The notes below the pieces were generated by a model. It had not been told where the DNA came from. It did not search any database and worked only from the letters and a program-made list of their open reading frames with translations. From contig CAZXDD010000002.1 of assembly GCA_964639415.1 (NCBI GenBank), forward strand, positions 1 through 42,060: a stretch of DNA of 42,060 nt. Direction: 5' to 3'. Of the stretch, positions 13,789-28,440 are shown in pieces. Source of the DNA: an uncultured Armatimonadia bacterium (lineage in GTDB: Bacteria > Armatimonadota > Zipacnadia > Zipacnadales > JABUFB01). The position numbers were made by a program, and so were the translations under genes. The stretch's first letter is position 1. The number at the start of each line of letters is the position of its first letter.

Positions 13789-13858
13789 ACGACCGGGTCG
13801 ACCGACCGGCCCGCTGGCGGCCGCCCTCGGGACGCCCGGCAGATGTGGAGCCATCGTC

Positions 13859-14905
13859 ATGAGCATCGGTATCGGCGTTATCGGCTGTGGCGTGCGCGGC
13901 CAGCACTCCTACGAGCTGGCCCTGGCCGCGCTGCCGCAATGTCAGGTACGGGCCGTGAGCCAGTACCCGGGCGCCTCGCCGGCGATGTTCGAGGGCAAGG
14001 ACGCCGAATCCCACGCCCGAAAGTACGCCCAGAGGCTGGGCGCGGAGTACTGCCCCGACCACACGGACCTCCTGCAGCGCGGGGATGTGCAGGTCGTGAG
14101 CCTCATGTGCGAGCCTCGGGCGGCTCCCGCCCTGGTGGAAGACTGCTGCCGGGCGGGCAAGCACATCGTGCGCGACAAGCCCATGTGCCTGGACCTTCCC
14201 GGCGCCGACAGGATCGTGGCGGCCGTGGAGGGCTGCGATTCGGAGCTGCTGCTGACTTTGGGGACACGCTTCTCGCCCACTCTGCGGCCCGCTGCCCGGC
14301 GGCTGATCGCCGGAGACATCGGTGAGCTCCTGACGGCCACCTTCACCTACCTGCAGGCGGGCGGCCCCCTCGATGGATTCCTCGGCTCTCCCGGGTATGT
14401 GGAGGCCGTCGGGGGAGGCGAGGTCACCAACTTCGGCCACTATGCCATCGACTACCTGCTGTGGATCGCAGGCGCACCCGTCGCGACCGTCTACGCCACC
14501 ATGGGCAGCTACTTCTATGCGGACTATCAGGACGCGGGGATGGAGGACCTCGGCCAACTGATGCTCCGCTTCAGCAACGGCGTCCTGGGCACCGTGATCA
14601 CGGGCCGCACCACGACCTCCCCCAGACCCGAGAGCTACTTTCGCCTCGACCTCACCGGCACGGCCGGCAGCATCCAGTGTGACAGCCAGGACGAATGCGT
14701 GCTCCTGAGCAGATCTGCTCCGCAGCCGCAGAGCACCGGGATCGGCGGGATACCCGCGATGCTCCGGGCCTTTCTCACAGCCATCGAGGCCGGCGAGCCG
14801 TCGCCCATCACCGCCCGTGATGGCCGCGAGGTGCTGCGCGTTTTGAAGGCGGCCTACCGCTCGGCCGCGGAGGGCTGCGCGGTCAACCTGCAGACAACGT
14901 CGTGA
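13859..14905 (+). CDS. Gfo/Idh/MocA family oxidoreductase
   Basis: Track ORF 13718..14905 trimmed to ATG 13859. The N-terminus has the Rossmann motif IGIGVIGCGVRGQ, followed by EPRAAP...AGKHIVRDKP, which is typical of the family (EKP-like motif). Confidence 0.85.
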   Translation: MSIGIGVIGCGVRGQHSYELALAALPQCQVRAVSQYPGASPAMFEGKDAESHARKYAQRLGAEYCPDHTDLLQRGDVQVVSLMCEPRAAPALVEDCCRAGKHIVRDKPMCLDLPGADRIVAAVEGCDSELLLTLGTRFSPTLRPAARRLIAGDIGELLTATFTYLQAGGPLDGFLGSPGYVEAVGGGEVTNFGHYAIDYLLWIAGAPVATVYATMGSYFYADYQDAGMEDLGQLMLRFSNGVLGTVITGRTTTSPRPESYFRLDLTGTAGSIQCDSQDECVLLSRSAPQPQSTGIGGIPAMLRAFLTAIEAGEPSPITARDGREVLRVLKAAYRSAAEGCAVNLQTTS

Positions 14906-14913
14906 ACGAGCAC

Positions 14914-14949
14914 CTCGCCCCCGGAGCGAAGGCCGCCACCGGGGGCGAG
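14914..14949 (+). terminator. Perfect 11-bp GC hairpin immediately after the oxidoreductase stop
   Basis: CTCGCCCCCGG-N14-CCGGGGGCGAG begins 9 nt after the TGA at 14903-14905. No U-tract follows. Confidence 0.5.
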
Positions 14950-15013: not shown

Positions 15014-15540
15014 CCGTGCCTGCGGGCCTCCAAGACCGCAAGGTCGGCCTCCCACCCTTCGCCAGAACCCACAACCCCGACAGAACACCTCCGTGCCTGC
15101 GGTCTTCCAAGACCGCAAGGCAGGCCACGCAACCCTTCGCCAGAACCCACAACGCTCACAGAGAACGTCCGTGCCTGCGGTCTTCCAAGGCCGCAAGGTG
15201 CCCCTCCCACCCTTAGCCAGAACCCCCAACCCTGGCGGAGAACCACCGTGCCTGCGGGTCTTGCCTCTCATTGCTGTGTGTGTGCCGCACCTTGCGGGCT
15301 TGGAAGCCCGCAGGCACGGAGACGATTGCAGTGTGTGTTGCCTCCAATTGCTGCGTGTGTGCCGCACCTTGCGGGCCTGGAGGCCCGCAAGGTCGGCCTC
15401 CCACCCTTCGCCAGAACCCACAACCCCGACAGAACACCTCCGTGCCTGCGGTCTTCCAAGACCGCAATGTGCCCCTCCCACCCTTCGCCAGAACCCACAA
15501 CGTCGGCGGCCAACCTCCGTGTCCGGTCTTCGGGGACAGC
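15014..15540. repeat. Array of 77-78-bp hairpin-bearing repeats (REP/BIME-like mosaic)
   Basis: Units start with CCGTGCCTGCGG at 15014, 15091, 15169, 15246 and 15440, with a degenerate unit at 15517. Each unit contains an 8-bp-stem hairpin (TGCGGTCT-TCCA-AGACCGCA) and the conserved block TCCCACCCTTCGCCAGAACCCACAAC. Two hairpin modules lie in inverted orientation between 15264 and 15385. An 83-bp exact repeat links 15036-15118 and 15385-15467. Confidence 0.85.
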
Positions 15541-15567: not shown

Positions 15568-17232
15568 CTACCCCCTCGCCTCCGCAAGGACCCTCTTCAC
15601 CGCCGCGTTGGGCCTCAGCAGCTCCTCGGCGCTCCGCACCGTCACCGTCGGGATCGCGTTATGCTCGCGGTGGATCTGCATACGCAACTCCTCGGCCTCG
15701 CTCTTGCCCGACAGCCCGCTGTAGCCGAAGGTCCTGCAGAGCCCGCCGAAGAGGAAGTCATTGAGCGCACAGCCACCGGTGCGCTCGAGGCCCTCGCAGT
15801 TGGTGTGCCAACTGTGGAACAGGTGCGCCTGCGCACAGGACAGGCCCTGCATGGTGATCTCGTTGAGCCCCTCACCGCCCACCGCCAGCCCCTCCCCCAG
15901 CTCGGCGATCTGCTGGATCAGCCGGTTCATCCCCTCACTGGCCGTGGTGTTCTCCACCAGCGCATTGTGCAGATTGCCGCTGCACAGGGTCACGTCAATG
16001 AACACCGCATCCGTGTCCACGTCCACCACCGCGGCCCCGATGTGCTCGGCGAGGATCGAGCGCCACATGGCAAGCCCCGGATGGACCTTGACCATCACCT
16101 TGCGCCGACGGTTCTCACCAAGGCTGTGGTAGGAATTGGGCACTCCCAGCACACCCCCGGCCTCCGGGTCCCAACCCCAGCCGTGCAGCCCCTTGGTAAC
16201 CACATCGCGATACTGGAAGTCGCGGAGGTACGCGTAGGCCGGGTGGGTGGGGTCCATGTCCACGGAGTTGCAGTGCGGCATGATATGGAAGCCCATGGCC
16301 TTGGCCCTGGCGAAGGTTGCCCTCGCCTCGGCCGAGGCCACGTAGGTGGGGTAGTTCTCGTCATACGCATCGCTGCGCCAGTTGGAGAAGTGAACGAGGA
16401 CCTTCGCCGGGTCCACATGGGTGGCGACGGCATCGAGAATGTCCGCATCGCCGTTGAACCAGGAGAGGGCGAAGCGGATGTCGTGCAGCCATGCCTTGCG
16501 GACCGCGCAGTCCAGCCCGTAGGCCTGCCACAGCCAGTCCCGGTACTCCCCGGCGGGCACCTGCCAGTCGCCGGTGTAGACGTTCAGCCGCCACTGCAGC
16601 CCGCCGGCGCCGAGGCTGCTGTCCAGCGGCCCGTAGGCCTCGGTCTCCAGGCCGATCGTGCCCCTGTCGATGCTCAGCGCCTTGTAGCGGTACGCGCTAT
16701 CGCGGCAGTGCACCCAGAAGCCGCCGGCCTTCCCCTGGAGGATGGCAAGCCCCGCTTCCCAGTGCATCGGCCAGGGCCAGCGCCGCTGCAGCAGTGGGTC
16801 ACTCAGCGGCAGCTTGACGCCCTGGAAGAAGGGAGCGACAAGCTCGAGGTCCTTGCCCACTCCTGGCAGTAGCCAGCGGCACGACTGCACGCCGGCTCGG
16901 GACGAGTAGGCGGCGGGCTCGAGGATGAGGTCGCCGTTTTGCGGGTCCTCAGAGACGGAGAGAACACCATCGGCGTCCCACCCGCTGAGGCGCATCTGGG
17001 CGCTCAGGGGCGAGAGCTGATGGGCGGTGATGGTGGCCGCCAGATTGCCGACCACGTCCACGGTGCCCTGGCCGGGGTAGAGCAGTTGCAGGGCGGAGCC
17101 TTTGGTGTCTACCGGCGCCAGGTACTCGCGGCCGTCGAGCTTGCTCACCAGCGAGGTCAGGTAACCCCGCTCGATGGTGGCCTTCAGTGTCCGGGTCTCG
17201 GCGAGGATCTTGCCATCTTGCACCGTGATCAT
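15568..17232 (-). CDS. Hypothetical protein (554 aa), possibly glycoside-hydrolase-like; no family recognised with confidence
   Basis: Track ORF 15568..17424 trimmed to ATG 17232, with GGAGG 11 nt upstream (MITVQDGKILAETRTLKATIERGY...). The ORF is long with protein-like composition. No signal peptide is evident. Confidence 0.7.
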   Translation of the reverse strand: MITVQDGKILAETRTLKATIERGYLTSLVSKLDGREYLAPVDTKGSALQLLYPGQGTVDVVGNLAATITAHQLSPLSAQMRLSGWDADGVLSVSEDPQNGDLILEPAAYSSRAGVQSCRWLLPGVGKDLELVAPFFQGVKLPLSDPLLQRRWPWPMHWEAGLAILQGKAGGFWVHCRDSAYRYKALSIDRGTIGLETEAYGPLDSSLGAGGLQWRLNVYTGDWQVPAGEYRDWLWQAYGLDCAVRKAWLHDIRFALSWFNGDADILDAVATHVDPAKVLVHFSNWRSDAYDENYPTYVASAEARATFARAKAMGFHIMPHCNSVDMDPTHPAYAYLRDFQYRDVVTKGLHGWGWDPEAGGVLGVPNSYHSLGENRRRKVMVKVHPGLAMWRSILAEHIGAAVVDVDTDAVFIDVTLCSGNLHNALVENTTASEGMNRLIQQIAELGEGLAVGGEGLNEITMQGLSCAQAHLFHSWHTNCEGLERTGGCALNDFLFGGLCRTFGYSGLSGKSEAEELRMQIHREHNAIPTVTVRSAEELLRPNAAVKRVLAEARG

Positions 17233-28261: not shown

Positions 28262-28440
28262 GGGGAGAATGAGAGGTCGAAGGAACGGCGAGCGACGAAC
28301 GGCGGACCACGGCGAACGGCAGACCACGGAGAGCACGGAGTTCCACGGAGTACGGCAAGGCCCGGGACGACGGAGAACGGCAGAGCACGGCGAACGGCAG
28401 ACCACGGAGAGCGACGACGCCGAGCCATGCGAGAGCGGGC
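28262..28440 (+). repeat. T-depleted, ACGG-word-rich intergenic tract with 27-bp direct repeat at 78-bp offset
   Basis: I count only six T in 179 nt of the plus strand. ACGGAG occurs at 28326, 28335, 28345, 28370 and 28404. An exact repeat, CACGGCGAACGGCAGACCACGGAGAGC, occurs at 28308-28334 and 28386-28412. Confidence 0.7.

Follow-up and report, generated by a model that had tools for sequence, protein, structure and literature searches.

A tandem array of REP-type elements in an uncultured Armatimonadia genus, probably belonging to a lineage-specific REP-RAYT system

REPs are short extragenic repeats that fold into hairpins and rely on a REP-associated tyrosine transposase of the HUH/Y1 type, the RAYT. 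The closest described systems are the REP/REPIN-RAYT systems of Pseudomonas fluorescens SBW25 and TnpA-REP of Escherichia coli (PMC3116915, PMC3337134, PMC5581495; PDB 4ER8). Tandem REP arrays have been described in SBW25 as a minority arrangement only (PMC3116915, “Tandemly repeated REP sequences”). Here we consider an array of 77/78-nt units from an uncultured Armatimonadia genus, which very probably represents a cluster of REP-type elements of a lineage-specific REP-RAYT system. Since tandem REP arrays are already on record in SBW25, we class the system within the known kind, a selfish or domesticated repeat; its phylum-level host is new, and direct tandem arrays are its dominant layout. 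If this assignment is right, REP-RAYT systems are extended to Armatimonadota, and a conspicuous non-coding feature is explained by its REP-RAYT identity.

The window, i.e., the whole 42,060-nt stretch of DNA that was analysed, is contig C2 of the MAG G000 (8.06 Mb in 946 contigs, 67.8% GC, 88% completeness), and it was compared with the sister species G001 (CAYRFY01, “uncultured Armatimonadia bacterium”). The original prediction asked whether the repeat unit of the window is dispersed or confined to its locus, and the copy count clearly favours dispersal: the core pattern GTGCCNGCGGKYYTCCARRMCCGC, searched with at most one mismatch, has 87 copies in G000 and 152 in G001, while the reversed control pattern has 0. 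An iterated nhmmer search with a profile built from the window units detected 147 units in 70 arrays of the MAG and the fetched G001 contigs. In G000, the cores are grouped in about 36 arrays, which occur in both orientations, and 19/36 of these are located at contig ends; the repeat family therefore breaks the assembly, which explains a practical problem met with these MAGs. Among 41 related genomes, the full 77-nt unit was detected only in this genus, and a scan of viral contigs gave no repeat copies. When metagenomes were scanned with the 27-mer, 36 contigs were obtained, all from a single JGI study (Ga0334882-89), and these contigs represent the same population, since their flanks are 99-100% identical to G000.

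The family shares with the REP/REPIN-RAYT systems a short palindrome, imperfect and preceded by a conserved 5′ flank, a copy number of dozens to hundreds, an exclusively extragenic location, and a putative RAYT-type Y1/HUH transposase gene flanked by the repeat. Vertical inheritance is a common trait as well: two species have the repeat at the same loci, and the core recurs with a 59%-identical RAYT in another family. Unlike the described systems, in which REPs mainly form inverted doublets, neighbouring REPs are here mostly direct, with a spacing mode of 77/78 nt: among the core pairs lying within 200 nt of each other, 25 are direct and 4 inverted in G000, and 53 are direct and 2 inverted in the contigs of the same population. 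Inverted doublets (REPINs) are thus not the main layout in either data set. Further differences are that each REP has a tail of ~50 nt kept uniform within the array, that the conserved flank is CCGTGCC instead of GTAG, and that the host phylum is Armatimonadota.

Clusters of REPs filling intergenic spacers, convergent ones included, are also known as enterobacterial BIMEs. However, BIMEs consist of alternating REPs with defined linkers, whereas here same-orientation runs switch only at occasional junctions inside the hairpin. The orientation pattern of successive units in the window is +++--++, the runs are mostly direct genome-wide, and alternating orientation with defined linker motifs was not found in either. 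The suggested BIME-like mosaic is therefore untenable in the strict sense of the term, because successive units are direct rather than alternating.

In the window, the array (15014-15540) occupies the 662-nt spacer between two convergent genes. The left one encodes a GFO_IDH_MocA-type oxidoreductase of 348 aa (13859..14905, + strand; a coding-potential call, with PF01408/PF02894 found in independent assemblies), and the right one a DUF6259 protein of 554 aa (15568..17232, - strand; the exact product occurs on 15 contigs, Pfam PF19773). The array starts 108 nt after the oxidoreductase stop (14905) and ends 27 nt from the DUF6259 gene stop (15568); the sequence and the ORF list bear out the originally described distances. 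Directly after the oxidoreductase stop codon, a GC-rich hairpin CTCGCCCCCGG...CCGGGGGCGAG (14914..14949, + strand) can be read from the sequence; it is outside the repeat family.

The unit of the array has 77/78 nt and is composed of the conserved hairpin module CCGTGCCYGCGGTCTTCCAAGACCGC and a variable tail of ~50 nt. The five predicted unit starts (15014, 15091, 15169, 15246, and 15440) all proved to carry an exact + strand match to CCGTGCCTGCGG; on the - strand, this string occurs exactly once (15308-15319). If one mismatch is allowed, the window has 9 matches, the expected number being 1.3, and 9 was reached by 0/100 shuffles. Tandem Repeats Finder reports 15014-15262 with a period of 77, 3.2 copies, and 82% matches.

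Reading from the left, forward unit 1 (15014..15090) combines the REP module CCGTGCCTGCGGGCCTCCAAGACCGCA, which has one stem mismatch, with a C-rich tail. Forward unit 2 (15091..15168, 78 nt) has the REP hairpin TGCGGTCT-TCCA-AGACCGCA and a tail (fold of -23.8 kcal/mol, z = -2.4), and it is followed by forward unit 3 (15169..15245); forward units 1, 3, and 5 are repeats with profile matches. In a truncated forward REP (CCGTGCCTGCGGGTCT; 15246..15261, + strand), repeat comparison places the forward-to-reverse junction, which is inside the hairpin. Reverse unit 1 (15262..15320, - strand; profile match 15319-15286, REP core 15290-15319) carries a tail that belongs to another subfamily and is rich in GT on the + strand, and its - strand fold reaches -27.1 kcal/mol (z = -3.5). 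By the same comparison, reverse unit 2 (15321..15396, - strand) has the near-palindromic hairpin CTTGCGGGCCTGGAGGCCCGCAAGG, which doubles as the REP of the next forward unit and thereby represents the reverse-to-forward junction. Forward unit 4 (15369..15439, + strand; profile match 15369-15438) consists of this shared hairpin and a tail, and forward unit 5 (15440..15516, + strand) comes after it. The degenerate unit proposed at 15517 (CCGTGTCCGGTCTTCGGGG) is plausible but weak: the REP remnant CCGTGTCCGGTCTTCGGGGACAGC (15517..15540, + strand) was read from the sequence and falls below the nhmmer threshold. Two other details of the original prediction are correct, namely the two inverted modules, which repeat comparison finds at 77-nt spacing within inverted units spanning about 15258-15396, and the 83-bp duplicate, in which 15036-15118 is identical to 15385-15467 and identity ends there on both sides.

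The complete 662-nt spacer is present with 1-2 mismatches in 4 independent assemblies (2 ENA MEGAHIT and 2 JGI), and 4 others break inside it; all of them are short-read assemblies. Since the spacer recurs in four independent assemblies, the array is not a one-off assembly artefact, an explanation which had been raised for it at the outset.

Across the family, the conserved module of ~27 nt is nearly invariant: the heptamer CCGTGCC and one variable base (C or T) precede a hairpin with a 7-bp stem and the loop TCCA. The tails of ~50 nt are alike within an array and only loosely alike between arrays (consensus ..C.C..CGCC.G.A.CCACAAC.C...). An 8-bp stem had been described in the window, and folding confirms it there; family-wide, however, the stem has 7 bp, the eighth pair (T8-A27) being found in 12/54 units, including those of the window. 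Two hairpin variants occur, GCGGTCTTCCAAGACCGC and GCGGG(T/G)CTCCAGGCCCGC, with compensatory changes at two pairs. The 7-bp stem is supported by the covariation analysis of the collected copies: 87.7% of cells are paired as compared with at most 41.7% in slid controls, and 11 cells are compensatory, a number reached by 0/500 shuffles, the compensatory changes being carried by only two hairpin variants and hence representing few independent events. By eye, the tail also seemed to contain another hairpin with covariation (CCAGCA/TGCTGG, GCCGGT/ACCGGC), but this was rejected, since pairing within units was no better than between units (p = 0.14); nor was it predicted by RNAalifold.

The genomic context of the arrays was assessed using gene calls from our own crude coding-potential model. 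By these calls, 67/70 arrays overlap no predicted gene, and the 3 overlaps are weak ORF calls running into repeats. The distance of the arrays from gene 3′ ends is 4-80 nt, whereas gene starts are in most cases 150 nt or more away. Among the arrays flanked fully (n = 16), 5 are between convergent, 4 between divergent, and 7 between tandem genes, and unit orientation with respect to the adjacent gene is mixed. This mixture of contexts and orientations suggests a tolerated intergenic insertion and is ill-fitting for a dedicated RNA gene or terminator.

Most arrays occupy orthologous loci in G000 and G001, where locus-specific tails are common to both species (for example, C41_20139 and L022_256), so that signs of recent mobility are scarce. 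At one locus, an array is present in G001 (L027:7430-7770, L020:1-400) and absent from the orthologous G000 spacer (C463:3220-3520); in the search for empty sites between the species, this spacer was too divergent to define the element ends. The G001 arrays at this locus are composite (“type B”), in which the hairpin GCGGGGCTCCAGGCCCGC and a CCGT/GTTGTC-rich tail of ~88 nt alternate with 73-nt units; in the orthologous G000 spacer, the stop codon is followed by a (GGTGAG)n microsatellite. A type-B hairpin is also found in G001 at the orthologue of the window’s right flank (G001:C414; L044:3440-3573), where its orientation towards the DUF6259 gene is reversed and the contig then ends; the array at this locus was remodelled after the split of the two species. 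As judged from coordinates, two C41 loci differ in array length by +78 nt between assemblies and the C516 locus by -100 nt, which could be either real copy-number variation or assembly collapse. Elsewhere in the window (28262-28440), an ACGG-rich and T-poor tract is located between convergent genes; no REP hairpin was seen in it, and its reverse complement resembles the CCGT-rich tails beside type-B REPs elsewhere in the genome.

The putative partner gene was found in the contigs of the same population. On L064, a flank of which is 100% identical to G000:C858, a 169-aa ORF (2356-2865, - strand) is located between two arrays. Its match to the NCBIfam model NF047646 (REP-associated tyrosine transposase) covers profile positions 4-146 of 146 and reaches 77.6 bits (E = 8.8e-22), slightly less than the curated cut-off of 80; the ORF scores 16.8 bits with the IS200 model and 21.5 with Pfam Y1_Tnp, the cut-off of which is 23. 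The best PDB match of the protein is E. coli TnpA-REP (4ER8, E = 0.009). Seven homologues agree without exception in the LPH motif, the HUH motif (H76, H78), and the YIxxN tyrosine (Y140). Sixteen contigs encode the exact protein, and 13 of these do not reach 2 kb. In 8/8 assemblies examined, arrays are present on both sides of the gene within about 45-65 nt. The immediate surroundings are alike in the 8 contigs shown of 16, two longer contigs have the same neighbouring gene, and no second locus was seen in these 8 contigs of a fragmentary genome.

A search of the G000 and G001 bins did not detect this RAYT-like gene, which is missing from both because it resides on contigs mostly below 2 kb (13/16). 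Its assignment to the window’s genome appears probable, resting on the 99-100% identical flanks of the same-population contigs. The proposed search for RAYT and IS200 genes thus gave a RAYT-like gene in these contigs and only an IS200-type gene in the MAG itself. Taken together, the dispersed core (87 and 152 copies against 0 in the control), its intergenic position, and the RAYT-like gene between arrays support one of the two alternatives of the original prediction, in which the array consists of REP elements mobilised by a RAYT.

The IS200-type Y1 gene at C138, the only Y1 transposase found in the MAG, was tried as a partner and rejected: it has 64 bits with NF033573 and 19 bits with the RAYT model, and no repeat copy is nearby. 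This gene (13857-14201) is followed by three 103-nt tandem repeats (G000:C138:13461-13723; L043:1105-1413) with a core of ~58 nt found on at least 13 contigs; they represent a separate family, possibly with its own transposase. In addition, the C858 side is joined to C622 in assembly Ga0334884 (L079:4300-5000) via arrays and MITE copies without the RAYT gene; either the assembly took a short-cut through the repeats, or the population includes a variant lacking the RAYT.

RAYT homologues are present in 30/41 genomes of the order. The closest one (59% identity) belongs to G017 from another family of the order and has on either side the sequence CCGTTCGTGCCAGCGGGTCTCCAGACCCGCTAG, a core almost identical to the present one, which forms inverted doublets there (CGTGCCAGCGGGTCTCCAGACCCGC doublets). 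The G017 genome has 56 copies of that core, mostly in +/- pairs 47-64 nt apart, i.e., classical REPINs, and 11 homologous matches to the RAYT. The G019 homologue has its own REPIN on each side, and the G012 homologue (L092, G012:C141:13595-16315; 58% identity) has a tandem array on each side, one of 6-7 copies with a period of 94 nt and the other of about 5 copies with a period of 42 nt. Since the homologues of all three genomes are flanked by hairpin repeats, the RAYT-REP partnership is general in the order, and the G012 arrays indicate that tandem REP layouts recur within it. This allows a natural comparison of two families that have related RAYTs and almost identical REP cores, one with an inverted-doublet layout and the other with direct tandem arrays, and it is useful for asking what the REP replicative unit is.

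By analogy with E. coli TnpA-REP and the IS200/IS605 enzymes, we suppose that the RAYT would bind the hairpin in single-stranded DNA and cut beside the conserved 5′ heptamer. Such binding and cutting would explain why the 27-nt module is near-invariant while the ~50-nt tails diverge between arrays. The arrays may gain and lose copies of the 77/78-nt unit by slippage or unequal recombination, which fits the homogeneity of tails within an array and the 78-nt length differences at two loci (100 nt at the third). Orientation would change by recombination or template switching within the palindromic stem; the stem is the presumed crossover point because every orientation junction inspected (15246-15261 and 15364-15391 in the window, and those of the C41 arrays) is within a hairpin. 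An effect on the host, such as mRNA 3′-end protection or termination, is possible as a secondary one. It is conceivable, albeit rather unlikely, that the replicating unit itself has changed in this genus, from the inverted doublet retained in G017 to a direct 77/78-nt “REP plus tail” multiplying in place. If true, the transposase would drive array expansion, flips in orientation at hairpins, and possibly RAYT loss by inter-array recombination, which would represent a mode of REP propagation not described so far.

Other explanations of the repeat family need to be weighed against the REP-RAYT assignment. The repeats might be a minisatellite lacking any mobiliser, spread and homogenised by recombination alone, with the RAYT-like gene having landed or been trapped in an array. 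The MIRU minisatellites of Mycobacterium tuberculosis (PMC3635867) likewise consist of directly repeated units, tens of bases long, at numerous intergenic loci, and in both cases copy number appears to differ, here between short-read assemblies in which collapse is possible. The prevalence of direct units with the fixed 77/78-nt period, the homogeneous tails within arrays, the variation in array length (78 nt at two loci, 100 nt at another), and the sharing of most loci by both species with little sign of recent transposition could all be obtained in this way. However, MIRUs are not known to have a conserved strong hairpin module, whereas the present units have one and occur in both orientations relative to genes. 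To our knowledge, no transposase is linked to MIRUs. Recombination alone would leave unexplained the RAYT flanked on both sides in all eight assemblies, the 59%-identical RAYT flanked by nearly the same core in another family, and the other homologues in the order, each with its own flanking hairpin repeats; moreover, conservation is far stronger in the 27-nt module than in the tails, as expected of a recognition site. A minisatellite origin is therefore quite improbable.

A role for the host was also considered, in which the arrays are kept as factor-independent terminators, 3′-end stabilisers, or nucleoid-protein sites, and the RAYT is a domesticated partner. E. coli REPs can stabilise upstream mRNA, and the proximity of the arrays to gene 3′ ends (4-80 nt), the conservation of loci between two species, and the lack of U-tracts in other gene-end hairpins of the window are in line with such a role. 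Nevertheless, 4/16 fully flanked arrays are between divergent genes, the ratio of 5:7:4 for convergent, tandem, and divergent contexts is that expected for random intergenic placement, and the orientation of units relative to the adjacent gene is mixed; besides, one hairpin would suffice, and arrays of 3-7 units are left unexplained. We consider selection for such a function very improbable as the reason for the arrays. Least credible is the structured regulatory RNA, suggested originally, according to which the arrays are transcribed (from the - strand in the window) into multi-hairpin molecules with UGGA loops titrating CsrA. As in the CsrB/RsmZ sponge RNAs, hairpins are repeated and have GGA in the loop on one strand, here the reverse one, and csrA is present in the genome; this gene is also found in relatives without the repeat, so that the proposed csrA check does not discriminate. 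Unlike the sponge RNAs, the family comprises at least 36 arrays in both orientations and all gene contexts, and the repeat flanks a transposase gene. The Rfam scan gave no family match, only a sub-threshold match to a plant miRNA, and the numbers of promoter-like and terminator-like sites are 0 and 0. The second tail hairpin is not supported either. We consider the sponge RNA extremely improbable, and the REP-RAYT system is the preferred reading.

The REP hairpins also harbour another repeat. A MITE-like element of ~190 nt with terminal inverted repeats CTCAGATTATGCAGG...CATGCATAATCTGAG occurs at L064:1843-2030, in L079 (two copies), and in G000:C41 just right of 20471, and it has more than 25 matches in G001. 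It is placed within the REP hairpin loop (GGTCTTCCAA / element / CTCCAAGACCGC) and looks like a second mobile element targeting REP loops.
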